Assembly: GCA_964566685.1 (NCBI GenBank)
Contig: CAZMKB010000004.1
Span: forward strand, 1-34,238
Length of the DNA stretch: 34,238 bases
Source: an uncultured Gemmatimonadota bacterium
Lineage (GTDB): Bacteria; Gemmatimonadota; CAZMKB01
Direction of reading: 5' to 3'
Under the pieces are notes generated by a model. It made no database searches. It was not told the origin of the DNA and saw only the letters and a list, made by a program, of their open reading frames with translations. Positions 331-22,006 of the stretch are shown here, one piece after another. Every line of letters begins with the position of its first letter. Position 1 is the stretch's first letter. The position numbers were made by a program, and so were the translations under genes.

Positions 331-3093
331 ATGATACCCGCCCCATCCCGCACCCTGATGTTTTTCGTCTCTGCCGCACTCTTCTTCTCCCTGGCCGGAA
401 CCGCGCTGTCGATAGTACCTCCCCGCCGTTCCGGCGTCACGCTCCCGGTTCCCCGGAGTGCGCTCGAAGCGCAGGGGGTCGGCATGCCGGCACCCGTTCC
501 CGGGAGGTTCCTGGTGACGGACGGCGAAGGAAACCGGACGGTCAGGATCGAGGGGGTGTACCCGGTGCCGGTGCTGCTCGGCGAGTACTCGAACACCACC
601 GGAACTTACAGCAGCGCGGAATTCCAGACCATGCTCTTCGATGGTCCCTTTCCGACGGGTACGATGAAGGAGTACTACGAGGAGAACTCCTACGGCCTCT
701 TCACGCTCGAGGGCACCGTTTTCGGATGGTACGGGATGCCCGGCTCGAGCGGGTACTACGAGGGAGGCGACAACGGCTTCGGAACGGATTTTCCCACCAA
801 CGCCGGCGGGTTCGTGTACGACCTGGCGGCAGCCTCGGATCCCGACGTGGACTACGGCCTGTACGACAACGACGGCCCCGACGGCATGCCGAATTCCGGC
901 GACGACGACGGAGTGGTGGATGCGTTTTTCGCCGTTCACACCGGAAACGGCGGCGAGTGCGGCGGGACGGGCATCTGGTCCCACCGCTGGAGAGTGTCGT
1001 CCGCCGGGGGGCCTCCCGGAGGCTACGAGACCGACGACCCGGCGGCCGGCGGCGGGTTCATCCACGTGAACGACTACATCATCATGCCCGAGCTCGACTG
1101 CAGCGCGAACGAGATGAACGCCATCGGGGTGTTCTGTCACGAGTTCGGTCACTCCCTCGGGCTTCCCGACCTGTACGACGGAGACGGCTCTTCGGAAGGC
1201 ATCGGCGGGTGGGGCCTCATGGGCTCGGGTTCCTGGGGCGGCGACCAGGCCCACCCGGAGCTCCCGGTCCACTTCACTCCCTGGAGCAAGGAGCGGCTCG
1301 GCTGGATCGAGCCGTTCGAGCTCGGGCAGAACACGGATGTGGTGTCTCTGCCGAGGGTCGAGGACTCTCCCACCGTGGTCAGGGTCTGGAAGGACGGCGA
1401 CTACACGGGCACGGAGTACTTTCTCGTCGAGAACAGGCAGAAGGTCGGCTTCGACGCAAGCCTGATCAGGCCCGGAATCCTGATCTGGCACGTCGACAAC
1501 GACCGTCCCCACAACAACGACGAAACGCACAAACTGGTCGACCTCGAGGAAGCCGACGGTACGAACGGCCTCGACAATTCCGGCAACAGGGGTGACGCCG
1601 GGGATCCCTGGCCGGGCAGCACAGGCAACCGGCGCTTCGACTGGGACTCCCGCCCCGACAGCTACTCCTACTACGGATACCGGACCGAGGTCTCCGTGGT
1701 CGACATCGGCGACCCCGACTCGCTCATGACCGTTCGCTTCACCGTCCGTTCAGCGGTCATCGACTCGATCTCCTGGAACACCGACGACCCCGGCGGTGAC
1801 GGCGACGGAGTCTGGGACATCGGGGAGACGCTGGCGGTGGACTTCACGGTCGAGAACGACAGCCAGACTCCGGCCGAGAGCCTCTGGGCCGTTCTCGAGA
1901 GCGACGATCCCATGGTGACCGTCGACACGGACAGCGTCTTCCTGGGAACCCTCGAGGGAAGTTCCTGGATCGGGAACGGGGGCGAACCGTTTCTCGTCAC
2001 CGCGCTGCCCGAGTCGGAGGTCCACAGGACGACGCTCCGCCTGACGCTCTCCGGGAACGAGTTCTTCTCCTGGAGCAGCTCGATGGACATCATGATCGGG
2101 CATCCGTCGGTACTCCTCGTGGACGACTCGGAGGAAGGATCGGGGATCCTCGACTACTATGCCGCCTCCCTCGATTCTCTCTCCGTCCCGTTCATTTCCC
2201 GCACGGTCTCCCTCGAAGGGAGCGCGGCCGACACCCTCGAGCCGTTCGACCTCGTCATCTGGTTCTCCGGGAGGGAAACGGAGGACATACTCGACTCGCT
2301 GGATCTCCTGGCGCTCGAGGGACACCTGGAGCGGGGCGGCCGCCTGCTCCTCTCGGGACAGAACATCGCCGAGGATCTCGCGGCCAGGGAGGATCCTTTC
2401 CTCGGTGAGATACTCGGGGTGGCCGGCTGGGGCGGAACGGCAACGCTCCCGTTCGCCTACGGGATAGACGGCGATCCGGTCACCGGCGAGATCGAGGTGA
2501 TCGTGTCGGCGGGGCCGAAGGGGGCAAACAATCAGACCTCGAAGGACATCCTGGAACCGGTGTTCGAGGATCTGGTCATGGCCTCGTACGACTCGACCGA
2601 TCCGGGACAGGCCGCCGCCACGCGGAACGAGTTCCCGGAATACGGCGCGAAGGTCATCTTCCTCGGTTTCGGCTTCGAAGCGGTGAACCGGCCCTCCGGC
2701 GATCCGCTCCACACGACCCGTCTCGAATTCATGGAAAAGATGCTGGCCTGGCTCGAGACCCCCGTGGGAGTGGAGGACGCCGGAGAGAGCGGCGGACATG
2801 TTCCGCGGATCGTGTCGCTCGGCCAGAACTACCCGAATCCGTTCAATCCCAGCACGACGATCTCGTTCGAAATCCCCGCCGCCGACCGGGAAACCAGGAC
2901 CCGGCTCGTCATCTACAACATCCGGGGAACCCGTGTGCGTTCACTCGTCGACCGGATCCTCTCTCCCGGTCTCCACCGGGTGGTCTGGGACGGGAGGGAT
3001 GATCGCGGGACGGCCGTGTCCTCGGGCATCTACTTCTGCCGTATCGCTCACGGCGAAACCAGCATCACCCGGAAGATGTTGCTTCTCGAGTAA
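331..3093 (+). CDS. Secreted M6-family (immune inhibitor A-like) zinc metallopeptidase with C-terminal T9SS/FlgD-like sorting domain
   Basis: ATG 331 is preceded by AAAGGAGGA (317-325). Hydrophobic N-terminal signal (MFFVSAALFFSLAGTALS). HEFGHSLGLPDLYD zinc-binding HExxH motif. The last ~90 aa (NYPNPFNPSTTISFEIP...GIYFCRI...KMLLLE) look like Por/T9SS type-A C-terminal domains. TAA stop. Confidence 0.85.
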   Translation: MIPAPSRTLMFFVSAALFFSLAGTALSIVPPRRSGVTLPVPRSALEAQGVGMPAPVPGRFLVTDGEGNRTVRIEGVYPVPVLLGEYSNTTGTYSSAEFQTMLFDGPFPTGTMKEYYEENSYGLFTLEGTVFGWYGMPGSSGYYEGGDNGFGTDFPTNAGGFVYDLAAASDPDVDYGLYDNDGPDGMPNSGDDDGVVDAFFAVHTGNGGECGGTGIWSHRWRVSSAGGPPGGYETDDPAAGGGFIHVNDYIIMPELDCSANEMNAIGVFCHEFGHSLGLPDLYDGDGSSEGIGGWGLMGSGSWGGDQAHPELPVHFTPWSKERLGWIEPFELGQNTDVVSLPRVEDSPTVVRVWKDGDYTGTEYFLVENRQKVGFDASLIRPGILIWHVDNDRPHNNDETHKLVDLEEADGTNGLDNSGNRGDAGDPWPGSTGNRRFDWDSRPDSYSYYGYRTEVSVVDIGDPDSLMTVRFTVRSAVIDSISWNTDDPGGDGDGVWDIGETLAVDFTVENDSQTPAESLWAVLESDDPMVTVDTDSVFLGTLEGSSWIGNGGEPFLVTALPESEVHRTTLRLTLSGNEFFSWSSSMDIMIGHPSVLLVDDSEEGSGILDYYAASLDSLSVPFISRTVSLEGSAADTLEPFDLVIWFSGRETEDILDSLDLLALEGHLERGGRLLLSGQNIAEDLAAREDPFLGEILGVAGWGGTATLPFAYGIDGDPVTGEIEVIVSAGPKGANNQTSKDILEPVFEDLVMASYDSTDPGQAAATRNEFPEYGAKVIFLGFGFEAVNRPSGDPLHTTRLEFMEKMLAWLETPVGVEDAGESGGHVPRIVSLGQNYPNPFNPSTTISFEIPAADRETRTRLVIYNIRGTRVRSLVDRILSPGLHRVVWDGRDDRGTAVSSGIYFCRIAHGETSITRKMLLLE

Positions 3094-3180
3094 CCTGCCA
3101 GCTGATGATCGTGCGTCCTGCCTGCGCGGGGAAGTGGCCACGGGAGCCAGTGAAGCGATTCGACATCGGAGGGAAGAGGT

Positions 3181-4287
3181 ATGGAAGAAGGCGGAGAACA
3201 GAAAAAGACACCGCTCTATGACGTGCACCGGGAGCTCGGCGGGAAGATGGTTCCCTTCGCCGGCTACAGTCTTCCGGTCTCCTACAGCGGCATCCTCGAC
3301 GAGCACCGGGCGGTGAGAGAACGGGTGGGGCTCTTCGATGTCTCCCATATGGGAAGGATCGAAGTGCTCGGGGACGGAGCCTCTTCGTACCTCGATTACA
3401 TCACGACGAACAGCGTGCCGGCGCTCGATCCCGGGCAGGCACAGTATTCAGCGATGCTGAACGACGAAGGTGGCATCATCGATGACATCCTGGTCTACCG
3501 CGAGAGCGACCGGTATCTGGTGGTGGTGAACGCCGCCAACCACCGGAAGGACTTCCGCTGGATGGATCGGCACCTGTCCGGGGGCGTCTCTCTCGTGGAC
3601 GTGACCGGGGAAATCGCCCAGATCGCTCTCCAGGGCCCGGCGTCACAGGAGATTCTCGCGAAGCTCACCGATCTCGACCTCGACGGAATCCGCTACTACT
3701 GGTTCACCCGCGGCCGGGTGGCCGGCGCCGGCTGCCTCGTCGCCCGGACCGGTTACACCGGCGAAGACGGCTTCGAGCTCTACGTCCCGGCCCGGCGCGC
3801 ACCGGATATCTGGCGGGAGATCATGGAAGCGGGAAGGGACAGGGAAATATTCCCCTGCGGCCTGGGTTGCCGTGACACGCTCCGGCTCGAGATGCGCTAC
3901 TGCCTGTACGGAAACGACATCGACGAGACGACCACCCCGCTCGAAGCCGGTCTCAGGTGGATCACCAAGCTCGACAAGGGGGAGTTCGTCGGCCGCGAGG
4001 CGCTGGTCCGGCAGCTCGAGTCGGGCATCTGCCGGCGGCTCGCGGGATTCGAGATGACGGGGCGCGGAATCCCCCGCCCCGGATACCCGGTGTACTGCGA
4101 AGGAGAGGAAGTCTCCCGCGTGGCCAGCGGCACGAGCTCGCCGTCGCTCGGAAAAGGCATCGGGACTGCCTACCTCCCCGTGGACTGCGCCTCGGTCGGG
4201 CAGACCATCGAGATCGGAATCAGGGGGAAGCGGCAGCAGGCGACAGTGGTGAAACCGCCCTTCTACACCGAAGGCAGCCACCGCTAG
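3181..4287 (+). CDS. gcvT: Glycine cleavage system T protein (aminomethyltransferase)
   Basis: KTPLYDVHRELGGKMVPFAGYSLPVSY...GLFDVSHMGRIEV...ARTGYTGEDGFELY are classic GcvT signatures. SD GGAGGGAAGAGG lies just upstream of ATG 3181. TAG stop. Confidence 0.95.
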   Translation: MEEGGEQKKTPLYDVHRELGGKMVPFAGYSLPVSYSGILDEHRAVRERVGLFDVSHMGRIEVLGDGASSYLDYITTNSVPALDPGQAQYSAMLNDEGGIIDDILVYRESDRYLVVVNAANHRKDFRWMDRHLSGGVSLVDVTGEIAQIALQGPASQEILAKLTDLDLDGIRYYWFTRGRVAGAGCLVARTGYTGEDGFELYVPARRAPDIWREIMEAGRDREIFPCGLGCRDTLRLEMRYCLYGNDIDETTTPLEAGLRWITKLDKGEFVGREALVRQLESGICRRLAGFEMTGRGIPRPGYPVYCEGEEVSRVASGTSSPSLGKGIGTAYLPVDCASVGQTIEIGIRGKRQQATVVKPPFYTEGSHR

Positions 4288-4306
4288 CCCTCCTGCCTGC
4301 CCCGCC

Positions 4307-4335
4307 TTGACACCTTCCGGCCATCTCATTAGAAT
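4307..4335 (+). promoter_or_regulatory. sigma70-type promoter candidate for the bEBP gene
   Basis: TTGACA (4307-4312), 17-nt spacer, TAGAAT (4330-4335), about 90 nt upstream of ATG 4427. Confidence 0.55.
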
Positions 4336-4426
4336 ATAAGAGGAAGGCTGCCAATATGGCAGGCCGCGGCCTGTCGTACGATGAATAATACGGGCTCAGA
4401 ACATTTGTGGGTGAGGAGGGCAGCAC

Positions 4427-5944
4427 ATGGTGGAAGAGAACGGCCATCTCATCGTCATCAGCCATCACGATCCGGCAGTCGCCCGCCGGATCAGGGATAT
4501 CCTCGGGGAGCGGGGGATTCCCGCCCAGCTCCTGTCCGGAATCGAAGAGCTCGGTCACCACCTGCTCGGGGAGGAGTGCGACCTGGTGATCCTCTCGGGC
4601 GGTCTCCGGGACGAACCAGTCAGGAAGATTCTCAAGAAATTCCGCCGCAGCTCCTTCCGCGGGGCTGTCATCGGGTTCTGGGAGTCAGGATCCATGGAGG
4701 AGGAGGAGCGGCTCGAGCAGCTCGGTGTCGACGAGGTTCTCACGAAGCCCCCCGACCCGAGGGAGGTATTTCTCGTCTCGAAACGGCTCCTCGAGCGGGA
4801 GGACCTCATCCAGCTCACCGGTCTCATCGGAACTTCCCGGGTGATGACCGAGCTCCTCGAAAAGGTCGAGCGATTCGCCCCGGTCAACTCCACGGTCCTG
4901 ATCACCGGAGAGAGCGGGACCGGAAAGGAGCTCGTCGCGAAAGCGCTTCACCGGCTGAGCCCCCGCAGTCACAAACCCTTCATCGCGGTGAACTGCGCCG
5001 CCCTGCCGGAGAGCCTCCTCGAGTCGGAACTCTTCGGGCATGAGAAGGGAGCGTTCACCGGTGCCACCGCCCTCCGGAAGGGGCGGTTCGAGATCGCTCA
5101 CGGCGGGACACTCTTTCTGGATGAGATCGGGGAGATGTCTCTCTCGACGCAGGTCCACCTGCTGAGGGTCCTCGAGGAGCGCGAGCTCATGCGTGTGGGG
5201 GGATCCACACCGATACCCGTCGACGTTCGGGTCGTCGTCGCCACGAACAGGGATATTCGTGAAGAGGTCTCCGCCGGGCGTTTCAGGCGCGACCTGTACT
5301 ACCGGATCAAGGTCCTGATGATCGACGTCCCGCCGCTCCGGGAACGCAGGGAGGACATCCCGCTCCTGGTGAACAAGTTCGTGCGTGAGTTCTGCGAGGA
5401 GAACAGGAGGAGCTTCGCCGGCCTGACCGACGAGGCGCTCGAAGTCCTGGTCAACTATGACTGGCCGGGCAATGTGCGCGAGCTCAGAAATCTGATCGAG
5501 AGCATGCTCGTTCTCTCGCCGGATCACAAGATCAAGCCGTCGGACATTCCCGAGCACATCTTCAAGCGGGGCGATCCCCGGCGGCTCCTGCCCATGCAGG
5601 TCCTCCCCGAGATTCCCGAAGGCAGGAGATTCGAGGCCATTCTCAACGCGCTCCTCGAGATCAAGCACGACGTCGACGAGATCAAGGAAGCCATGCCGGT
5701 GAGGAAGGCCGGCGAGGTCGTTCCGGAATCGGAGGATCGGGAGTTTCCCGGCGGAGAGCCGCGATACCGGGAAGGCGACGGTTACATCAAAATCGTGCCG
5801 GGAACGCCGCTCGAAGAGGTCGAGAAGATCCTCATCGAGGCGACTCTCGACATGGTCGGAGGAAACAGGAGAATGGCATCCGAATTGCTCGGTATCGGAG
5901 AGCGGACTCTCTACCGGAAGATCAAGAACCATCAGCTCACCTGA
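4427..5944 (+). CDS. Sigma54-dependent transcriptional activator (NtrC-family bEBP) with degenerate N-terminal receiver-like domain and C-terminal Fis-type HTH
   Basis: SD GTGAGGAGGG (4411-4420). AAA+ Walker A GESGTGKE, Walker B TLFLDEIGE, sigma54-contact loop GAFTGA, RRDLYYRI arginine-finger region, C-terminal HTH NRRMASELLGIGERTLYRKI. The N-terminal ~120 aa has a CheY-like pattern but lacks the acidic pocket (see findings). Confidence 0.93.
   Translation: MVEENGHLIVISHHDPAVARRIRDILGERGIPAQLLSGIEELGHHLLGEECDLVILSGGLRDEPVRKILKKFRRSSFRGAVIGFWESGSMEEEERLEQLGVDEVLTKPPDPREVFLVSKRLLEREDLIQLTGLIGTSRVMTELLEKVERFAPVNSTVLITGESGTGKELVAKALHRLSPRSHKPFIAVNCAALPESLLESELFGHEKGAFTGATALRKGRFEIAHGGTLFLDEIGEMSLSTQVHLLRVLEERELMRVGGSTPIPVDVRVVVATNRDIREEVSAGRFRRDLYYRIKVLMIDVPPLRERREDIPLLVNKFVREFCEENRRSFAGLTDEALEVLVNYDWPGNVRELRNLIESMLVLSPDHKIKPSDIPEHIFKRGDPRRLLPMQVLPEIPEGRRFEAILNALLEIKHDVDEIKEAMPVRKAGEVVPESEDREFPGGEPRYREGDGYIKIVPGTPLEEVEKILIEATLDMVGGNRRMASELLGIGERTLYRKIKNHQLT
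5874..5889 (+). promoter_or_regulatory. sigma54-type -24/-12 promoter candidate (TGGCAT-N5-TTGCT) upstream of the FG-GAP gene
   Basis: TGGCAT (5874-5879), ccgaa, TTGCT (5885-5889), with GG/GC spacing as in the RpoN consensus TGGCAC-N5-TTGCW. Lies inside the 3' end of the bEBP gene, 64 nt before ATG 5953. Confidence 0.45.
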
Positions 5945-5952
5945 GACGAATC

Positions 5953-7428
5953 ATGAATCACCTCCTCCGCATAGCATTGCCCGTCACGTGGACACTGGTT
6001 CCGCTTTCCGTGCTCACAGCCCAGCTGCCCGGGTTTTCGAGAGCCGATCTGGAGACGAGAGAGGACCCGACCTGGGCGGAGCTCGTCGACCTCGACCACG
6101 ACGACATTCCGGATCTCGTCGTCAGCAACTCGATGAATTTCAGCGAGTACATAACGGTCTTCCTCGCCGACTCGGCGGGTTCGTTCACGCTCTCCGATGA
6201 CTACCTGATCCCCCGGGGTAACGGCGTGCGAAGCTTTTCCACCGGTGACTTCGACGAAGACGGTCATGTCGACGTCCTGGTGCCCTGCTGGCTGTCGGAT
6301 CAGGTGTTCCTGTTCCGGGGCGACGGTGAGGGCGGGCTCGGCGTGCCGGAGGAAATCTGGGCCGGACTCAATCCCGATCCGGTCACCGTCGGCGACTTCA
6401 ACGACGACGGCCACCTCGATTTTGCCGCCTCGAGCTGGATCACGGGATACGTGAATGTCATGCTGGGCACCGGCGACGGGACCTTCCTGGGCCCCGATCC
6501 CTACGACGTGCGGGGAGGGCCGAACTATTCGTGTGTGGATGACTTCAACGAAGACGGAATCGCCGACATCGCAGTCGCCAACTCGACGTTCAATGACGTG
6601 GCGCTGCTCGAGGGCAGGGGAGACGGGACGTTTCTCATCGGGGAAACCTTCGATGTCCTCTACGACGCCTACATGCCCGCTCCCGGCGATTTCAACGAGG
6701 ACGGCCACACCGACATCGCGTGTGCGACCCACCGCTCTCTCTCCATCCTGCACGGGGACGGAAACGGCGGCTTCGAGCGGGTGCAGGATTTCGTGACCGT
6801 CTCCCAGTTCAAGTGGGTGAGGGTAGGTGATTTCAACGAGGACAGGCATGATGACATCGCGCTCTGTATCAGGGAGTATTCGAACGTGGTCATCCTCGAG
6901 GGAAACGGAACGGGGCTGTTCGGCTCGCTCCTGCCGCTTCCGGTCGGCACCAGTCCGCAGTCGCTCGTCATCTCGGACGTTGACCTCGACGGTCACGATG
7001 ACCTGGTCACCGCAGGCGGAGATCCGGGAAGCGTGACCTTTCTCGGAAATGACATGGACGAGAGCCTGACGCTGGAAGTTCCCGACAGAGTAACGGCGGT
7101 GAGGGGAGACACGGGTTTCCTGAACGCCACCCTGGACATCCGGAACCGGAACGACTCGGCGGTCTCCTGTGACCTCTGGCTCACGATTTCGGAAAACGGG
7201 ACGGGAGAGAGGTTCGTCTCGCTCGAACACATCAACTGGCCGGCGAACCCGTTCCCCCTCGCGCTCGATCCGCACGAAACCCTGTCGCTCGGCCTGGCAG
7301 CGGTGACACCGCTCGACTCCGTGTCGGGGAATTACGTTCTCAGGCTGAGGCTGGGGCTCTATCCGGAAACGCTCTACTCCGCGGACTGTTTCGACGTCGT
7401 TCTCCCCACCCATGGCGGGATCGACTGA
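5953..7428 (+). CDS. Secreted FG-GAP/VCBS-repeat protein (predicted 7-bladed beta-propeller) with C-terminal Ig-like region
   Basis: Signal-like N-terminus MNHLLRIALPVTWTLVPLSVLTAQ. Seven Ca-binding-type repeats (DLDHDDIPDLVV, GDFDEDGHVDVLV, GDFNDDGHLDFAA, DDFNEDGIADIAV, GDFNEDGHTDIAC, GDFNEDRHDDIAL, SDVDLDGHDDLVT), mostly at a 147-nt (49-aa) period. Starts 8 nt after the bEBP stop. Confidence 0.85.
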   Translation: MNHLLRIALPVTWTLVPLSVLTAQLPGFSRADLETREDPTWAELVDLDHDDIPDLVVSNSMNFSEYITVFLADSAGSFTLSDDYLIPRGNGVRSFSTGDFDEDGHVDVLVPCWLSDQVFLFRGDGEGGLGVPEEIWAGLNPDPVTVGDFNDDGHLDFAASSWITGYVNVMLGTGDGTFLGPDPYDVRGGPNYSCVDDFNEDGIADIAVANSTFNDVALLEGRGDGTFLIGETFDVLYDAYMPAPGDFNEDGHTDIACATHRSLSILHGDGNGGFERVQDFVTVSQFKWVRVGDFNEDRHDDIALCIREYSNVVILEGNGTGLFGSLLPLPVGTSPQSLVISDVDLDGHDDLVTAGGDPGSVTFLGNDMDESLTLEVPDRVTAVRGDTGFLNATLDIRNRNDSAVSCDLWLTISENGTGERFVSLEHINWPANPFPLALDPHETLSLGLAAVTPLDSVSGNYVLRLRLGLYPETLYSADCFDVVLPTHGGID

Positions 7429-11139: not shown

Positions 11140-11916
11140 TCAGTGGGGATATGCGTGACCCCGCTGGGACGACACTTTCTCCGTTTTCGGCGCCTTCTCG
11201 ACCATGTCGGGGATCGCCACGGCCACGACTTCGTCCATCGTCCCCACCAGGATGATGTTCAGCTTCTTCTTCACTTCCGGAGGGAGGTCTTCAAGGTTTT
11301 TCTCGTTCCTCTTCGGAATGAGGAGCACCGTCGCTCCGGCACGCAGGGCCGCAACGGCCTTCTCCTTCAGCCCTCCAATGGGAAGGACCCGCCCGCGAAG
11401 TGTTATCTCTCCCGTCATCGCCACGTCCCTGCGGACCGGCAGTTTCAGGAGAGCCGATATCAGCGCCGTGGCGATGGCGATACCGGCGGACGGCCCGTCC
11501 TTGGGAGTGGCTCCTTCCGGGATGTGAACGTGGAGATCGTACTTCTTGTGAAAGTCGTCCTTCAGGCCGAAAACCGGAGAACGTGCCCTGATGTAGGAGA
11601 GCGCGGCTTCGGCCGATTCCTTCATGACATCGCCGAGCTTCCCCGTGAGACTCAGGTTGCCCTTGCCGGGCACGACGGAGACTTCGATCGACAGGATCTC
11701 GCCGCCGGCCTCGGTCCACGCCAGGCCGGTTGCCACACCGACCTCGTCGGCCTCACCGAGCTCCGTCTCGAAGTACTTGCCGGTGCCGAGGAGCTTCCTC
11801 ACCTGCTTCGGGGTTATCGCCGTCCTCTTCGACTCTCCCGCGGTGGCGACCTTCCTCGCGATCTTCCGGCAGACGGTGCTGATCTCGCGCTCGAGATTCC
11901 TGACGCCGGCCTCCCG
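11140..11916 (-). pseudogene. lon: Lon protease, C-terminal fragment (end of AAA+ module plus Ser-Lys proteolytic domain), out of frame with the N-terminal fragment
   Basis: This frame reads [23 protein letters not shown]...[17 protein letters not shown]...[19 protein letters not shown] (catalytic Ser motif)...[11 protein letters not shown]. The track ORF 11140..11802 begins at an internal GTG (Val in full-length Lon). Homology continues upstream in the same frame to ~11916. Confidence 0.88.
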
Positions 11917-13541
11917 CCGCTGATGATCGTCCCGATCGCGTTCCTGCTGAAGGACACCTTCTCCCCGCTGAGGCCATGAGCCTCGAGCTGCTTGGGAATG
12001 AGAAACCGCTTCGCGATCTCCACCTTTTCGCCTTCCAGATATCCCGGAAGCCGGATGACCTCCATCCGGTCGAGGAGGGCGGGGTGGATCGTATAGAGGA
12101 CGTTCGCCGTGGTGATGAAGAGCACCCTCGAGAGGTCGTAGTCGACCTCGAGGTAGTGGTCGCTGAACGCGTTGTTCTGTTCCGGGTCGAGCGCCTCGAG
12201 CAGCGCGGCGGAGGGATCTCCCCTGAAATCGACGGTCATCTTGTCGACCTCGTCGAGGAGCATGACGGGATTCACCGTCCCCGCACGTTTCATCGCCTGG
12301 ATCAGGCGGCCGGGAAGAGCGCCGATGTAGGTGCGCCGGTGCCCGCGAATCTCAGCCTCGTCCCTGATGCCCCCGAGCGAGATCCTGACGAATTTTCTCG
12401 AGAGAGCCCGGGCGATGGAGCGGCCGAGCGACGTCTTTCCGACTCCGGGAGGCCCCACGAGGCAGAGAATGGGACCCTTCATCCTGCCGACGAGCTTGAG
12501 GACCGAGATGTATTCGATGATCCGCTCCTTCGCCTTCTCGAGGCCGTAGTGGTCCTCGTCGAGAATCCTCGCGACCTCCTTCACCGACAGGTTGTCCTTC
12601 GTCCGCTTCTTCCAGGGGATCCCGAGCAGCCAGTCCAGGTAGTTCCTCGTGACGGTCGCTTCGGGCGAGAGCGGGGCCATTTTCGACAACTTTCTGATCT
12701 CCCTGTCGACCTTCTCCCGCACTTCCTTCGGCAGTCCCGCCGAGTCGGCTTTCTCCTGCAGCTCGATGATCTCGTCACCCTGATCCTCGGCGTCGCCGAG
12801 CTCCTTGTAGATGGCCTTCAGCTGCTCCTGCAGATAGAATTCCTTCTGGTTCTTGAGGACCTGTGTCTTGACCTCACCCTCGATCTTGCGCTCGAGCTTG
12901 AGGATTTCGATTTCGGATACCAGGATGCGGTTGATCTGCTCGAAGCCTTTGTAGAGCGTCTGCTTCTCAAGCAGCTCGACCTTGTCCGGGAGCTTGAGGA
13001 TGAGGTGACTCGAGATCAGGTACAGCAGGCGGCTGTTGTCGACGACGTTCTGCAGGGTGGTGAGCAACTCGTCGGGGAGCCGCTTGTTGAGCTTGACATA
13101 CTCTTCGAACAACCCCACGGCGCGCCGGGCGACCGCCTCGATTTTCTTGCCCTTCTCTTCGACCACCGGATAGAGCTCTATTTCAGCTTCCAGGAACTCC
13201 TCCTCCTGCGGGTATGAAATCGCTTTCGCACGCTCGATGCCCTCGATGAGAACCTTGATCGTGCCGTTCGGGAGCTTCACCATCTGGAGGATGCGCGAGA
13301 CGGTGCCGACGGAGTAGAGATCGGACGGCTCGGGCTCCGCTATGTCGCTCTCGAGCTGGGGGACCAGGAAGAGGAACTTGTCACCGAGCATGGCGTGCTC
13401 GAGCGCCGAAATGGAGGCCTCCCTGCCGACGAGGAGCGGGACCACCATGTTCGGGTAGATGACGACGTCGCGCAGCGGGATGGTGGGAAGAACTTCCTGT
13501 ATCTCCAGGTGTTCGCCGTCTTTTACGGTCGTGAGTGTCAT
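11814..13541 (-). pseudogene. lon: Lon protease, N-terminal substrate-binding domain plus AAA+ module, terminating prematurely after a frame disruption near 11911-11920
   Basis: IPLRDVVIYPNMVVPLLVGR (Lon N domain), Walker A GPPGVGKTSLGRSIA, Walker B MLLDEVDK. After ...[10 protein letters not shown] the translation degrades to Arg/Ser/Pro-rich sequence ([19 protein letters not shown]...) until TAA at 11814. ATG 13541 abuts the clpX stop (TAAATG). Confidence 0.9.
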
Positions 13542-16800: not shown

Positions 16801-16886
16801 TGGTGCGAGAGGGGGGACTCGAACCCCCACGGGATATTCCCACAGGATCCTAGGTCCAGCGCGTCTGCCGGTTCCGCCACTCTCGC
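16801..16886 (-). tRNA. tRNA-Leu (anticodon UAG), type II with long variable arm, encoded CCA
   Basis: Minus strand: GCGAGAG-UG-GCG...CGC-G-CUGGA-CCUAGGA-UCCUG-UGGGAAUAUCCCG-U-GGGGG-UUCGAGU-CCCCC-CUCUCGC-A-CCA. Aligns position-for-position with E. coli tRNA-Leu. The anticodon loop CCUAGGA gives UAG at 34-36. Position 33 is C and pair 28:42 is U-U (see findings). Confidence 0.88.
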
Positions 16887-16980: not shown

Positions 16981-18465
16981 TTACCACTCGGGTTCTATGA
17001 CGGTGAAGTGACGGGTGACACCGGTCTCCTCTGACCGCGAAACGTAGAGGAGAATTTCACTCTCTCCCCGGAGCCGGGACAGCCTCTCCTCCAGATCTTC
17101 TACTGAGGCAACAACCGTGCCGCGTTCGATTTCGAGAAGGACGTCACCGGCCCTGAGCGGATGGGGGCTCGCGCGTGCGGCCGGACCGTCGGGATCGACG
17201 TCCGCGATCGCCACTCCTCTCTGCTCGCTCATGCCGTGGATCTCCATCACTGCGTCCGACACGTTCTCGAATCGAATCCCGAAGGGGGACTCCGCCGGGA
17301 TCTCCGGTGAACGGGCGACCGTCTCCTCTTTGGACGGTCTCTCCATCAGATACACCGTCCGTGTCAGCCTCTCTCCGTCACGAATGATGCCGACCGTGAC
17401 CCCGTCTCCCGGCTCGTACCGGGCGATGAGCGTCTGCAGCTCATTCACTTTCGACACGTCGACCCCGTTGATGTCGACGATGACATCACCCTCTTCGATT
17501 CCCGCTTCGCGGGCCGGGCTGTCGTCCGGGACGAACCCCTCCACGACGACACCGCGCGCCTCGGGGAGGGACAGCTCCCCCGCGCGCTCCGGTGTCACGT
17601 TCCGGATGGAGACACCGAGTATCGGCCGGATGACTCTGCCGTGTTCGATGATGTCACCGGCCACCCTCCTGGCGAGACTGATCGGGATTGCGAACCCGTA
17701 CCCCTGGTAGAACCCGGTGTTGGTGGAGATCGCAGTATTGATGCCGATCACTTCTCCGTTCAGGTTGATGAGCGGTCCGCCGGAGTTCCCGGGATTGATC
17801 GCCGCATCCGTCTGGATGAAGCTCTCGATGCTGTAGCTCCCGGGAATGATGTCGATGTTCCTGCCCTTTGCACTGATGATTCCCGCCGTGACGGTGAAGG
17901 GGAGCCGCATGGGATTTCCCACGGCCAGAACCCACTCCCCGACTTGCGATCGGTCCGAATCCCCGAGCTTCGCGGTGTGGAGACCTTTCCGGTCGATCTT
18001 GATGACCGCCAGGTCGGTGGTCGGATCCCGCCCGATGACTTCGGCGGAGTGGATTTCATTCTCGTAGATCGAGACCTGGATCTCCTCGGCCTTCTCGACG
18101 ACGTGATTGTTCGTGAGGATGTAGCCGTCTTCCCTGAAGATCACTCCGCTCCCGAGGCCTTCCGTTTCGAACTGCTCCTCCTCGCGGAAACGCCTGAAAA
18201 AATCTTCGAACGGCCCGCGGAAGAGCGGGGCCTCGTCGATCGGCGGATGCTCGATCACGCGGCGGGCGCTTATGTTCACGACGAACGGCGTCACCTGTCT
18301 GGCGATTTCCACGAACGTGTTGCCGGGAGGAATCCCGGTGACGGATGGTTGCGTCGGGGTCTCCTCCTCCGTCGCCGCACGGGCGTGCGGAGTGTCCGCG
18401 AGGGGGGCCATGGTGAGAAAACAGAGGATGAGCCCGCTGATGGGGCCCATCCTCCTGCGTACCAT
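16981..18465 (-). CDS. htrA: Periplasmic serine endoprotease HtrA/DegP/DegQ family with two PDZ domains
   Basis: Catalytic triad contexts TNNHVV, DLAVIKI, GNSGGPLIN, followed by two PDZ-like regions. Start chosen at ATG 18465 (MVRRRMGPISGLILCFLTMAPLA signal), 28 nt after the dnaK stop. The track start at 18681 would overlap dnaK and encodes basic low-complexity sequence. Confidence 0.92.
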   Translation of the reverse strand: MVRRRMGPISGLILCFLTMAPLADTPHARAATEEETPTQPSVTGIPPGNTFVEIARQVTPFVVNISARRVIEHPPIDEAPLFRGPFEDFFRRFREEEQFETEGLGSGVIFREDGYILTNNHVVEKAEEIQVSIYENEIHSAEVIGRDPTTDLAVIKIDRKGLHTAKLGDSDRSQVGEWVLAVGNPMRLPFTVTAGIISAKGRNIDIIPGSYSIESFIQTDAAINPGNSGGPLINLNGEVIGINTAISTNTGFYQGYGFAIPISLARRVAGDIIEHGRVIRPILGVSIRNVTPERAGELSLPEARGVVVEGFVPDDSPAREAGIEEGDVIVDINGVDVSKVNELQTLIARYEPGDGVTVGIIRDGERLTRTVYLMERPSKEETVARSPEIPAESPFGIRFENVSDAVMEIHGMSEQRGVAIADVDPDGPAARASPHPLRAGDVLLEIERGTVVASVEDLEERLSRLRGESEILLYVSRSEETGVTRHFTVIEPEW

Positions 18466-18493
18466 GGTCGAGAGCTTCGTCCGCTCCCGGTTC

Positions 18494-20416
18494 TCACGAC
18501 TCTTTGTTTTCTTCGTCAACCACTTCGTATTCTGCATCGACGACGTCTTCTTCCTGCTTCGCCTGTCCGCCTTCCTCCCCGGCTTCCCCTGCACCTTCTG
18601 CGGACTGCGCCTGCTGCTGTTGCTGCTGGTACATCGTGCTCGCGACCTGGTGCCAGGTGTTCTGGAGGTCCTCCGTGGCACGGTTTATCTCGTTCATGTC
18701 AGCACCCTTGAGCGCGCTCCTGGTGCGCTCGATCGCAGCTTCGATCTTCGCCTTATCCTCGGCTCCGACCTTGTCTCCGAGCTCCTTCAGCTGCTTCTCC
18801 GTCTGGTAGACCATCGAGTCCGCCTTGTTCCGGGCGTCGATCTCCTGCTTCCGCTGCTGGTCCTCGGCCGCGTGGGCATCGGCATCCTTCACCATGCGAT
18901 CGATCTCGGCCTCGCTCAGACCGCTCGAAGCCTCGATCTTGATCGACTGCTCCTTGCCGGTGGCTTTGTCCTTCGCCGACACGTTGAGGATTCCGTTCGC
19001 GTCGATGTCGAATGTGACTTCGATCTGCGGAACACCACGGGGAGCCGGAGGGATTCCGGTGAGCTGGAACCGTCCGATCGTCTTGTTGCCGGCGGCCATC
19101 TCGCGCTCGCCCTGCAGCACGTGTATCTCGACGGTCGTCTGATTGTCCTCTGCCGTGCTGAAGACCTCGCTCTTCTTCGTGGGGATGGTCGTGTTCCGGT
19201 CGATGAGCTTCGTGAACACTCCTCCCAGGGTTTCGATACCGAGCGAGAGCGGCGTCACGTCGAGCAGCAGCACATCCTTGACCTCGCCGGCCAGGACCCC
19301 GCCCTGAATCGCGGCGCCTATCGCAACGACCTCGTCGGGGTTGACGCCCCTGTGCGGCTCCCTGCCGAAGAGCTCCTTGACCAGCTCCTGCACCTTCGGC
19401 ATTCTCGTCGCGCCGCCGACCAGGATGACTTCGTCGATGTCGTCCTTGGTCATGCCGGCGTCTTCGAGCGCTTTCCGGCACGGTCCCACCGTTCTCTGGA
19501 TGAGATCGTCGACCAGCTCTTCCAGCTTGGCCCTCGAAAGCGTCAGGTTCAGATGCTTGGGTCCGCTCGCGTCGGCCGTGATGAACGGAAGATTGATATC
19601 CGTTTTCGGAACGGTCGACAGCTCGCACTTCGCTTTCTCGGCCGCTTCCTTGAGCCGCTGCAGGGCCATCGGGTCCTTCTTCAGATCGATCCCCTCCTGT
19701 TTCTTGAACTCGGCCACCAGCCAGTCTATGATCCTCTGATCGAAATCATCTCCACCGAGATGAGTGTCACCGTTGGTGGCCTTGACTTCGAAGACTCCGT
19801 CACCGAGCTCGAGTATGGAGATGTCGAAGGTACCGCCACCGAGATCGAACACGGCTATCTTCTCGTCCTTCTTCTTGTCGAGTCCGTAGGCGAGCGATGC
19901 GGCAGTGGGTTCGTTGATGATCCGCAGCACCTCGAGTCCCGCTATCTTTCCCGCATCCTTCGTCGCCTGGCGCTGGCTGTCGTTGAAGTACGCCGGTACG
20001 GTAATGACCGCCTGCGTGACCTTCTGTCCGAGATAGTCCTCGGCGGTCTGTTTCATTTTCTGGAGAATCATGGCGGAAATCTCGGGAGGCGTGTGTTCCT
20101 TGCCGCCGGCCTTCACCCGCGCATCTCCGTTGGGCCCCGACACGACCTCGTAGGGGACCTTCTGTATCTCCTCGGAAACCTCTCCGTACTTCCTTCCCAC
20201 GAATCGTTTTATCGAGAAGACGGTGTTCTCCGGATTGGTGATGGCCTGCCGTTTTGCTACCTGGCCGGTCAGGCGTTCACCTTCCTTGCTGAATGCCACG
20301 ACCGACGGTGTCGTCCGACTCCCCTCGGCATTGGCTATGACGACCGGATCGCCGCCTTCCATGACAGCCACACAGGAATTGGTCGTACCCAGGTCGATTC
20401 CGATCACTTTACTCAT
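18494..20416 (-). CDS. dnaK: Molecular chaperone DnaK (Hsp70)
   Basis: [18 protein letters not shown]..., [23 protein letters not shown]-terminal lid and [14 protein letters not shown] tail. SD GAGGTG lies 6 nt before ATG 20416. Confidence 0.98.
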
Positions 20417-20483
20417 GTAATCACCTCGTCATGTCTGGTATTTCATGATTTTCGTACTTCGACGCAGGATCACGTTCGAGAGG

Positions 20484-20499
20484 AGCAAGGTCTGTGCCA
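20484..20499 (-). promoter_or_regulatory. sigma54-type -24/-12 promoter candidate (TGGCAC-N5-TTGCT) facing dnaK
   Basis: The minus strand reads gTGGCACagaccTTGCTc (20499 down to 20484). The motif ends 68 nt upstream of the dnaK ATG, giving a predicted leader of ~57 nt. Confidence 0.5.
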
Positions 20500-20740
20500 C
20501 AAAAAGGCCTTGATTTTTCCTTTGCGAGAACTATAAGAGAGAGAGGGGCTTTCGGACATTCGCCGGCATCGGCTCCCCATCGCCGTGGGCGATGGGGGAA
20601 AGCGTGGTGTGTCAGACTGGCAGTATTCTCCCGGAAATGCTGTCAATGCGGCATCCTGGCCGGTCGATCCTGCGATCATGGCAGGATGATCACGTGCGAA
20701 AAACTGTGAGGCACATTTTCTGGGGTGAGAATCTGTGAAG

Positions 20741-20756
20741 TGGCATGAGAATTGCC
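20741..20756 (+). promoter_or_regulatory. sigma54-type -24/-12 motif (TGGCAT-N5-TTGCC) facing the glycan locus, embedded in a 9-bp hairpin
   Basis: TGGCAT (20741-20746), gagaa, TTGCC (20752-20756). Part of the perfect inverted repeat GAAGTGGCA-N7-TGCCACTTC (20737-20761). Confidence 0.35.
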
Positions 20757-20970
20757 ACTTCCCTTGTTCGAGGTGATCGCGATCCGCAGCCGGCTGGCGA
20801 GTGCAGTGCTTTCATCCCGGACCGTCTGGGACGTGATCGTAGGGAGGCGACGTGAAATCGCCTCTCCTGGCAAAAGCAGATGGAACCGTGGTACCGTACG
20901 CCGGATTCGCACACGGGGAGTTGGGAACAAACTCCACGGAGGCGAGGAAGGACGCGGGGGATCTTTTAAC

Positions 20971-20999
20971 TTGACAAACCCGCCGATTTCTGGTACAAT
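20971..20999 (+). promoter_or_regulatory. Near-consensus sigma70 promoter (extended -10) for the glycan locus
   Basis: TTGACA (20971-20976), 17-nt spacer ending in TGG, TACAAT (20994-20999), ~120 nt upstream of ATG 21122. Confidence 0.7.
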
Positions 21000-21121
21000 T
21001 AAACCCATTGATGCACCGGAACCCGATGATACTCTGGATGATTCATGTGAAAACACAATCGGTCTTTTACGCCGTCCCTATGCTTCCTCAGTGACCACAA
21101 GCCGCGTGGCGGGATGAGTGT

Positions 21122-22006
21122 ATGAAAAAGAGGCTCCGGGAAAAAGACAGGGTGAGCACCCTGCACACACTCCTGAAGAAGGAACGGGACGGGTGGCGTG
21201 ACTGGGTAGGGCCCGGAGAAGGTTTTCGCGACATCCAGGCACGGTATCATCAGGATCTGGTTGCACAGGAATTCGGACTGCCTCGTGAGGACGCCCTCTC
21301 CGCGATCTCCCGGCTGTCCTACCGCAGGGCGTTTTCTCTTTCGTGGAGACGCTCACTGAAGCGCCTGATGGACGTCACCGTCGCCTCCCTGCTTCTCCTG
21401 CTCTCGGCTCCGCTCTTCTTCCTCATCGCGGTACTCATCAAGATCGACTCCGGCGGGCCCGTCTTCTTCACACAGCAGCGGATCGGCCTGAACCGGCGAC
21501 GGACCGATCGGAGAGGGACGGAGAGTATCGGGAACAAGACGACCTTCATTTTCAACCGGAGAACCGGTGATCGTCGTGTTCACGACCTGAAGGGAAAGCC
21601 TTTCAAGATCTTCAAGTTCCGGACGATGAAGACGTCGAGCCCGAGGTACGACTTCTCTCCGAAAACCCACAACGACGAACGACTGACACGGTTCGGACGG
21701 TTTCTGCGGAAGGTCTCCCTCGACGAGCTGCCCCAGCTCATCAATGTGATCAAGGGAGACATGAGCCTCGTCGGTCCACGCCCCGAGATGCCCTACATCG
21801 TCGTCGGATACAACAAGGTTCACGCGATCAGACTGCAGATGAAACCGGGAGTGACCGGCATCTGGCAGCTCCGTGCATCCCGGGACAAGCCGATCCACGA
21901 GAACCTCATCTTCGATCTCCAGTACATCAGGGACTGGTCGCTCTGGCTCGATGTCAAACTGCTCTATCAGACCGTGAAGTGGATGTTTCACTGTATCAAT
22001 GTATGA
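21122..22006 (+). CDS. Polyprenyl-phosphate sugar-1-phosphate transferase (bacterial sugar transferase / WbaP-EpsL-type priming enzyme)
   Basis: Membrane hairpin KRLMDVTVASLLLLLSAPLFFLIAVLIKIDSGGPVFF, then KIFKFRTM, DERLTRFGRFLRKVSLDELPQLINVIKGDMSLVGPRP, all family signatures. Contains an unusual Arg-rich insertion. Confidence 0.9.
   Translation: MKKRLREKDRVSTLHTLLKKERDGWRDWVGPGEGFRDIQARYHQDLVAQEFGLPREDALSAISRLSYRRAFSLSWRRSLKRLMDVTVASLLLLLSAPLFFLIAVLIKIDSGGPVFFTQQRIGLNRRRTDRRGTESIGNKTTFIFNRRTGDRRVHDLKGKPFKIFKFRTMKTSSPRYDFSPKTHNDERLTRFGRFLRKVSLDELPQLINVIKGDMSLVGPRPEMPYIVVGYNKVHAIRLQMKPGVTGIWQLRASRDKPIHENLIFDLQYIRDWSLWLDVKLLYQTVKWMFHCINV

Follow-up and report, generated by a model that had tools for sequence, protein, structure and literature searches.

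A conserved and probably sigma-54-dependent divergent control region between dnaK and an exopolysaccharide-type operon in an uncultured Gemmatimonadota bacterium

The window analysed here is the whole of the 34,238-bp contig CAZMKB010000004.1 of an uncultured Gemmatimonadota bacterium, and the element under study is the 705-bp gap separating the chaperone gene dnaK from a Bac_transf sugar transferase gene. No other intergenic gap on the contig is as long, the second-longest measuring 232 bp. Its G+C content is 54.3% compared with 61% contig-wide, in agreement with the initial annotation of the window, which had described a non-coding divergent control region of lower G+C than the flanks. The non-coding and divergent character was likewise supported by the absence of conserved open reading frames (ORFs) and Rfam matches and by the conservation of the promoter elements described below. 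The genes concerned are as follows:

18494..20416, minus strand: dnaK (Hsp70, 640 aa; Pfam HSP70, E=3.5e-279), heading the leftward operon
16981..18466, minus strand: serine protease gene of the htrA/degP type (Trypsin_2 and PDZ domains, Pfam)
21122..22006, plus strand: initiating sugar transferase gene (Bac_transf; Pfam, NCBIfam), opening an exopolysaccharide-type operon

The start codon and MSKV N-terminus of DnaK line up with the orthologs, and its best matches (82% and 78% identity) both belong to uncultured Gemmatimonadota. Together with a protease bearing a type IX secretion tail, these matches assign the contig to the Gemmatimonadota-like members of the Fibrobacteres-Chlorobi-Bacteroidetes (FCB) group. 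The likely ATG of htrA is at about 18466, some 27 nt past the dnaK stop, and the two genes overlap by 4 nt in the related genome L001. Thus, htrA is probably co-transcribed with dnaK. On the right, the sugar transferase gene is followed by those of Poly_export, a phosphodiesterase-family protein, a flippase, a GT4 glycosyltransferase and a PIG-L deacetylase (Pfam, NCBIfam). Three promoter elements were located in the gap itself:

20485..20499, minus strand: sigma-54 promoter of the -24/-12 type, TGGCACAGACCTTGC, exact consensus, 18.0 bits with a heuristic position weight matrix
20741..20755, plus strand: sigma-54 promoter of the -24/-12 type, TGGCATGAGAATTGC, exact consensus, facing the sugar-polymer operon and forming the core of the hairpin 20737-20761
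20971..20999, plus strand: extended -10 sigma-70 promoter, TTGACA-17-TGgTACAAT, 11 of 12 positions plus the upstream TG

The motif TGGCAY-N5-TTGC has exactly three matches on the contig, at 5874 (plus strand), 20485-20499 (minus strand) and 20741-20755 (plus strand). Dinucleotide shuffles give an expectation of 0.05, and none of 100 shuffles reached three matches. The GG and GC dinucleotides are exactly 10 nt apart in both elements of the gap. The three matches found by eye in the initial annotation, including the elements directed toward dnaK and to the right, were therefore recovered together with its near-consensus sigma-70 promoter. The leftward element points at dnaK and ends 68 nt from its ATG; transcription would start near 20473, leaving a 5' untranslated region (5'UTR) of approximately 57 nt. 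The rightward element points at 21122 with no terminator in between and has a predicted start near 20767. The start of the sigma-70 promoter is placed near 21006, with a probable leader of about 116 nt. No further sigma-70-like site was seen near dnaK. The operator CIRCE (controlling inverted repeat of chaperone expression; TTAGCACTC-N9-GAGTGCTAA) was absent from the contig with up to 4 mismatches allowed, as well as from the 1.5 kb around the dnaK start in the six related loci checked. Its absence from these sequences speaks against HrcA/CIRCE heat-shock control of dnaK.

The orthologous gaps were compared in six genomes, namely the window and five other uncultured Gemmatimonadota-like genomes with the same dnaK/sugar-transferase neighbourhood:

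L001, genome collection: DnaK 82%, sugar transferase 70% identity
L081, metagenome: sugar transferase 68% identity
L168, contig of a sugar-transferase homolog: sugar transferase 69% identity
L169, contig of a sugar-transferase homolog: sugar transferase 67% identity
L170, contig of a sugar-transferase homolog: sugar transferase 68% identity

The syntenic orthologs of the rightward operon show 67-87% protein identity. A contig search with the window's own sugar transferase as the query returned no contig. In the alignment of the window with L001 and L081, 21.5% of the columns are identical three-way, which is the background. The top 15-nt blocks of this alignment are the rightward sigma-54 element (15/15), the -35 region of the sigma-70 promoter (13/15), the leftward sigma-54 element (11/15) and the -10 hexamer (10/15); the start-codon regions of both flanking genes are also among the best. 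Across all six genomes, TGGCAnnnGAATTGC is invariant in the rightward element, and TTGACAAA...TG.TACAAT is invariant in the sigma-70 promoter. The leftward element was found in the same place in each of the six. The rightward element is the same 15-mer in L001 and L081 and is also present in L168, L169 and L170, and the sigma-70 promoter was recovered in L001 and L081. Within the gap, conservation is thus highest at the sigma-70 promoter and the two sigma-54 elements; it lies on the promoter hexamers and not on the hairpins. The 10-bp palindrome and most of the hairpins of the initial annotation were not found in the relatives. Distant Bac_transf homologs (79 metagenome loci) showed no general link with sigma-54 elements or with the palindrome described below.

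Sigma-54 elements upstream of dnaK were found in related phyla as well. Eighty dnaK loci of Gemmatimonadota, Zixibacteria, Ignavibacteria, Eisenbacteria and Cytophagia were scored on the sense strand with the heuristic matrix at a threshold of at least 11 bits. The interval from -150 to -40 of dnaK contained 29 elements in the 80 loci, against 0.43 expected from the hit rate elsewhere in these loci (Poisson p ~1e-42). Sigma-54 elements are thus strongly enriched in front of dnaK in these phyla. In approximately 11 more loci, the element is situated 620-1055 nt upstream, before an hsp20 gene that precedes dnaK, and other strong sites in the 80 loci precede grpE, dnaJ-like and hsp20 genes. This enrichment agrees with a 2025 survey based on position-specific scoring matrices, in which sigma-54 promoters at the genes of DnaK, DnaJ, GrpE, GroEL/ES and IbpA were enriched in Bacteroidota and Planctomycetota (PMC12316311). 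In the same survey, GrpE of B. thetaiotaomicron and F. psychrophilum and GroES of B. thetaiotaomicron are stated to be sigma-54-dependent (PMC12316311).

A dyad search in the 300 nt upstream of the sigma-54 elements of the dnaK loci yielded the palindrome TGYCA-N3-TGRCA. The dnaK loci (680 kb) contain 22 exact copies, of which 18 lie no more than 300 nt upstream of a sigma-54 element of dnaK or hsp20-dnaK (0.39 expected). The remaining copies are mostly found beside other sigma-54 sites, including those preceding grpE and hsp20. The consensus of 31 distinct sites is cTG(T/C)CA-(A/T)3-TG(G/A)CAg. The gap of the window carries three such sites, none of them assigned to a strand:

20610..20622: putative enhancer site 1, TGTCAGACTGGCA, exact match to TGYCA-N3-TGRCA
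20641..20653: putative enhancer site 2, TGTCAATGCGGCA, 1 mismatch, 31 bp from site 1
20671..20683: putative enhancer site 3, TGCGATCATGGCA, 1 mismatch, 30 bp from site 2

Site 3 sits within the hairpin ATCCTGC-N7-GCAGGAT (20667-20687), and the position aligned to it in L001 reads TGCGATGGTGGCA on the reverse strand, with 1 mismatch. The centres of the triplet lie 143-204 nt upstream of the predicted leftward sigma-54 start (about 143 nt for site 1) and 90-151 nt upstream of the rightward one. The spacing of about 31 bp would place the three palindromes on one face of the helix. In 1.2 Mb scanned, the only triplets spaced by 29-34 bp came from the gaps preceding dnaK in the window, L001, L081, L168 and L170; approximately 0.05 would be expected by chance. 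The phased triplet of 13-bp palindromes at 20610-20683 is the likely enhancer. In Zixibacteria and Ignavibacteria loci, pairs of the palindrome are located at -131 and -91.

The contig also encodes a candidate for the protein that would bind these sites. Its gene and promoter region comprise the following features:

4427..5944, plus strand: sigma-54 enhancer-binding protein (Pfam Sigma54_activat, E=2.9e-73; HTH_8) with a pseudo-receiver N-terminus, an AAA+ domain and a Fis-type helix-turn-helix (HTH)
4307..4335, plus strand: promoter of the activator gene, TTGACA-17-TAGAAT, assigned from the sequence
4348..4362, plus strand: palindrome CTGCCAATATGGCAG, exact, directly after this promoter and 65 nt before the start codon

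The GAFTGA loop of the protein is intact. The match to the receiver domain is below the cut-off (Pfam E=5.5e-4). When aligned with an NtrC receiver sequence, the D54 position is occupied in 20 family members by S, T or G inside a conserved LTGGL motif, and the acidic DD pair is missing. A phospho-accepting response regulator (NtrC proper) was rejected as the class of this protein because neither the acidic pocket nor the phospho-acceptor Asp is present, and a histidine kinase is thus unlikely to control it. No activator gene was found within 4 kb of dnaK across the 80 loci, and the link to the palindrome was thus drawn from the activator's own promoter. The copy at 4348-4362 is the only other exact palindrome on the contig. 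Exact palindromes also occur 20-65 nt before the start codon in four of six activator orthologs (L161, L162, L163 and L164). In L165, a copy with 1 mismatch lies ahead of a two-gene operon, and L166 has none. This location at the activator's own sigma-70 promoter suggests autorepression. Because the same palindrome recurs at the activator's promoter in the window and most orthologs, the pseudo-receiver protein 4427-5944 is the probable activator binding the palindromes. Its orthologs (50-70% identity, full-length) are widespread in Gemmatimonadota and repeatedly adjoin ysxC, lon, clpX and clpP.

The surroundings of the activator gene are partly conserved. The gene gcvT precedes it in the window, L161, L163 and L164; in L166, a small MoCF_biosynth gene intervenes. 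A gene of an M6 metalloprotease is found before gcvT in the window (stretch 331-5944), L161 and L164, and a type IX secretion tail was seen in the window and L161. The activator gene is usually convergent with the ysxC/lon/clpX block. The third TGGCAY-N5-TTGC match (5874-5888, plus strand) falls inside the codons of the Fis-type HTH (MASELLG), 79 nt before an FG-GAP gene (5953-7428). This element is kept in orthologs with a co-directional downstream gene (L161 and L163). In L162, where the neighbour is convergent, synonymous changes destroy the element and leave the peptide unchanged. Retention with a co-directional neighbour and loss with a convergent one hint at a real internal sigma-54 promoter.

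Taken together, the gap is fairly probably a conserved divergent sigma-54 control region with a palindrome-fed promoter for dnaK-htrA, the protein 4427-5944 as the candidate activator and tandem promoters to the right. The motifs, their statistical excess and their conserved position and orientation are established by the comparisons above. The sigma-54 RNA polymerase would bind at 20485-20499 and transcribe dnaK-htrA from about 20473. Since the sigma-54 holoenzyme is unable to open DNA alone, an AAA+ activator is needed. Activator dimers would most likely bind the palindromes at 20610, 20641 and 20671, assemble into an active oligomer and contact the promoter through DNA looping. The pseudo-receiver protein, encoded 15 kb away, is the best candidate; it would repress its own sigma-70 promoter and activate dnaK-htrA. 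The sugar-polymer operon would be served by tandem promoters, a distal sigma-54 promoter starting at about 20767 and a proximal extended -10 sigma-70 promoter starting at about 21006. In this genome, 90-150 nt separate the triplet from the rightward sigma-54 start downstream of it; one activator may therefore fire in both directions, and sharing of the enhancer by the rightward element is plausible in the window. The inducing signal would probably be proteotoxic or heat stress. Tandem promoters for the polysaccharide operon would fit an earlier report in which sigma-54 was associated with exopolysaccharide genes (PMC3162934).

A broader proposal is put forward tentatively, with somewhat less than even confidence. 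A hitherto undescribed family of pseudo-receiver sigma-54 activators, with 4427-5944 as its prototype and cTGYCA-wwt-TGRCAg as its site, could act as master regulator of heat shock and proteostasis in Gemmatimonadota and the neighbouring phyla of the FCB group (Zixibacteria, Ignavibacteria, Eisenbacteria, some Cytophagia). It would replace sigma-32 or HrcA/CIRCE, and the same enhancer would be wired to a second sigma-54 promoter in the window's clade. If this is true, that clade induces its chaperones and its exopolysaccharide synthesis jointly.

Several points weigh against the divergent control region as proposed. The sigma-54 matrix was heuristic, built from consensus frequencies and not taken from a curated source. 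The rpoN gene is not on the 34-kb contig; the organism probably uses sigma-54, since a GAFTGA activator is encoded there. Two of the three palindromes in the window carry a mismatch. In L021, L031, L055, L056 and L071, a single palindrome abuts the -24 element, beginning 21 nt before TGGC (offset -21). The link between the palindromes and the protein 4427-5944 is circumstantial, and the abutting sites and the operator position would also fit a separate repressor. Finally, the triplet and the rightward element are about 1 kb apart in L168, L169 and L170, separated by a deoC-family gene (PF01791; 1664-2503, 1807-2649 and 897-1754, respectively). Enhancer sharing therefore cannot be general, and the rightward element may depend on a different activator.

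Two side observations concern these arrangements. The deoC-family gene is a clean gene-sized insertion or deletion within the regulatory region; a single clade has it, whereas the gaps of the window, L001 and L081 contain neither the gene nor a detectable remnant. L002 has a single palindrome with 1 mismatch at the place seen in the abutting loci, some 20 nt before the sigma-54 element of dnaK. The single abutting palindrome of the Gemmatimonadales loci, in place of a distant array, is a different promoter architecture and could reflect repression or activation at very close range.

The rightward element might have no promoter function for the operon, being a conserved site with another role or an orphan promoter, so that the operon would be transcribed from the sigma-70 promoter only. 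The stretch downstream of it is unconserved and variable in length (about 170-300 nt), a strong sigma-70 promoter lies nearer the sugar transferase gene, and no palindrome triplet is found near the element in L168-170. Moreover, its core is itself palindromic (TGGCA-N7-TGCCA) in the window and L081. However, the -24 TGGCA and the -12 GAATTGC are invariant in six genomes whose proteins have diverged to 67-87% identity, the element is always oriented to the operon without an intervening terminator, and the palindromic arms outside the sigma-54 consensus are not kept in L001. Tandem sigma-54/sigma-70 promoters are, besides, common. The loss of promoter function is accordingly considered unlikely, and the rightward element is retained here as the distal promoter of the operon.

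It is slightly less likely still that the palindromes are operators of a separate heat-shock repressor, similar to HrcA/CIRCE or to HspR with its HspR-associated inverted repeat (HAIR), and that the sigma-54 promoters are fed by another enhancer. The palindrome of the activator gene, just downstream of the -10 hexamer, occupies a classic operator position, and the five abutting sites at offset -21 fit the same idea. On the other hand, the triplets of the window's clade, phased by about 31 bp and located -90 to -205 from the starts, and the pairs at -131 and -91 in Zixibacteria and Ignavibacteria have the geometry typical of enhancers. CCA-N3-TGG is a core common to the palindrome and the NtrC consensus, and the Fis-type HTH of the candidate activator is NtrC-like. 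PspF and NtrC are activators known to bind their own sigma-70 promoters. Activation from the triplet by the pseudo-receiver protein is thus preferred.

The gap also contains inverted repeats, a spacer and short ORFs, to which the initial annotation had ascribed further roles:

20575..20597, unstranded: perfect 10-bp inverted repeat, CCCCATCGCC-gtg-GGCGATGGGG, single copy on the contig
20667..20687, unstranded: inverted repeat ATCCTGC-N7-GCAGGAT, arms of 7 nt
20737..20761, unstranded: inverted repeat with arms of 9 nt, its core TGGCA-N7-TGCCA being the rightward sigma-54 element
20844..20864, unstranded: inverted repeat GAGGCGA-N7-TCGCCTC, arms of 7 nt
20917..20935, unstranded: inverted repeat GGAGTT-N7-AACTCC, read from the sequence
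20767..20970, plus strand: spacer or leader between the rightward sigma-54 element and the sigma-70 promoter, holding the hairpins 20844-20864 and 20917-20935 and a 40-aa ORF (20852-20974)

All five repeats are present as annotated, four of them with 7-nt loops. Direct reading gives four repeats with perfect arms of at least 7 nt; the counting script gave three, omitting that at 20737. Shuffles contain approximately 0.3 such repeats, and 3 of 500 shuffles reach the scripted count of three. By the same script, a score of 3 was obtained for two further tiles of 705 bp on the contig; the repeat density is therefore elevated and not unique. As a conserved property, hairpin density was not upheld: the gaps of the relatives are not rich in inverted repeats, and L001 has not kept the arms by which the 20737-20761 hairpin extends past the sigma-54 consensus.

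The 10-bp palindrome 20575-20597 had been proposed as the enhancer of the dnaK promoter, being perfect, unique and centred about 113 nt upstream of the predicted dnaK start. This role is very improbable. The position falls in an alignment gap in both L001 and L081, no comparable G+C-rich perfect repeat is present in the relatives' gaps, and a different motif (TGYCA-N3-TGRCA) accompanies the sigma-54 dnaK promoters across phyla. Two other interpretations of this palindrome were discarded, namely a sigma-32-like reading of its CCCCAT (the -35 and the spacing misfit by eye, and it is not conserved) and a repeated element (single copy, not conserved).

A structured non-coding RNA, or a small RNA transcribed from about 20767 under sigma-54, has even a little less in its favour, although the hairpins 20844-20864 and 20917-20935 fold well in isolation and the conserved promoter is followed by a long untranslated stretch. 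Rfam 15 gave no match at gathering score or E<=10 in 20350-21250, and its sole match on the contig is the tRNA-Leu at 16804-16886. The folding z-scores of the three putative leaders are -0.08 (stretch 20767-20970), +0.29 (sigma-70 leader) and -0.77 (dnaK 5'UTR). The spacer of about 170-300 nt is unalignable across the six genomes, and the RNAalifold consensus of three orthologous leaders, resting on a poor alignment, reaches only -3 kcal/mol without covariation. The hairpins are absent in relatives, and no terminator-like hairpin precedes the sigma-70 promoter in the window, L001 or L081. The structured RNA suggested initially is thus not sustained.

In the dnaK 5'UTR (20405-20473, minus strand), the first bases GUGAUC can pair just past the Shine-Dalgarno (SD) sequence, and GTGATC is found in the same place in L001. 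An RNA thermometer there finds no support, as the fold is no better than that of shuffles (z=-0.77).

A small protein gene hidden in the gap (the 40-aa ORF 20852-20974, or ORFs of 121 and 126 aa) is hardly credible. The ORFs exist, and one has an SD-like GGGAGG. However, Pfam gave no match for the eight gap ORFs, a tblastn search with the gap in all reading frames returned only short promoter blocks from the gaps of L001 and L081, and between-genome indels are not multiples of three. The ORF with GGGAGG, 20852-20974, is not conserved in relatives; it also corrects the initial annotation, which rightly saw no protein family among the gap ORFs and took all of them to lack SD sequences.

The minus-strand genes to the left of the gap form a proteostasis cluster of dnaK, htrA, tRNA-Leu, tig, clpP, clpX, lon and ysxC. 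In this cluster, lon (11140-13541, minus strand) is split into two ORFs in different frames, 11 nt apart. One is of 575 aa (N-terminal and AAA domains), and the other is of 220 aa (protease domain); the L162 ortholog is a single 802-aa protein. The split reflects either an assembly frameshift error or a pseudogene. A sigma-54-like element (CGGCACGGTTGTTGCC, 13.5 bits) is found at 17107-17122 (minus strand), about 140 nt before the htrA stop, directed toward tRNA-Leu and tig-clpP-clpX-lon. L001 has a counterpart at the same relative position (7293), and similar matches occur in L005, L074 and L076. No TGYCA-N3-TGRCA palindrome is nearby. It could be a promoter of the protease cluster or merely reflect a codon constraint (G-x-x-V-A, same frame). 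On the right, the sugar transferase 21122-22006 is a short form bearing a conserved cytoplasmic extension of about 75 aa at its N-terminus. Its Arg-rich insert NRRRTDRRGTESIGNKTTFIFNRRTGDRRVHDLKGKPF divides the Bac_transf match in two and is near-identical in the ortholog of 70% identity.

These results add to the evidence that a large, mostly uncultured bacterial branch puts dnaK, hsp20, grpE and dnaJ under sigma-54. In the textbook view, heat-shock genes are controlled by sigma-32 or by repressors, HrcA among them. Sigma-54 control requires an ATP-driven activator and allows very tight on/off switching. The promoter, the three-site enhancer, the candidate activator and the autoregulatory operator make up a testable wiring diagram, in which a link between proteostasis stress and surface-polysaccharide production is suggested. 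For annotation, the longest gap of the contig would be regulatory DNA with no missed gene or RNA.

Among known systems, NtrC of enteric bacteria acts at glnAp2 from tandem dimer sites upstream of the sigma-54 promoter. The similarity to the present region includes multiple palindromes in helical phase between about -100 and -200, an activator with a Fis-type HTH and a GAFTGA AAA+ domain, and a site core CCA-N3-TGG resembling TGCACCA-N3-TGGTGCA. An activator site at a sigma-70 promoter for repression is also common to both, being predicted from the sequence in the present case. Unlike NtrC, the candidate activator has no phospho-acceptor Asp and no acidic pocket, and its targets would be chaperones, not nitrogen assimilation. 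PspF and the pspA-E operon of E. coli form a sigma-54 stress regulon with a divergent activator gene. The common features are a sigma-54 stress operon, a non-phosphorylated activator and enhancer sites autoregulating the activator's sigma-70 promoter. PspF lacks a regulatory domain at its N-terminus and is kept in check by PspA, whereas the protein described here has a conserved pseudo-receiver and is encoded 15 kb away from the target and not divergently from it. In Myxococcus xanthus, HsfA/HsfB control lonD, a sigma-54-dependent heat-shock gene. There too, a heat-shock/proteostasis gene is activated via sigma-54 and an NtrC-type activator, but HsfA, from another phylum, is a true response regulator that accepts phosphate from a cognate kinase, and its binding site is not known to be related.

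The sigma-54 chaperone promoters predicted in Bacteroidota and Planctomycetota (PMC12316311) resemble the present one in the -24/-12 promoter directly upstream of dnaK, in the sister promoters at hsp20, grpE and dnaJ of related loci and in the same broad lineage, the FCB group. The divergent pairing with a second sigma-54 promoter facing a polysaccharide locus distinguishes the present region. Term searches of that survey found no mention of Gemmatimonadota, Ignavibacteria, Fibrobacteres, enhancers or palindromes; Zixibacteria and Eisenbacteria were not searched for (PMC12316311). The searchable literature names no heat-shock sigma-54 activator or binding site for these phyla and, as far as it shows, both are first proposed here for chaperone sigma-54 promoters. 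The region works like the classic sigma-54 systems of the NtrC and PspF type and belongs to the sigma-54-driven chaperone class of the FCB group and Planctomycetota. New elements are the putative enhancer of phased palindromes, the pseudo-receiver protein as candidate activator, with a predicted autoregulatory operator at its own gene, and the combination of all this with a polysaccharide operon.

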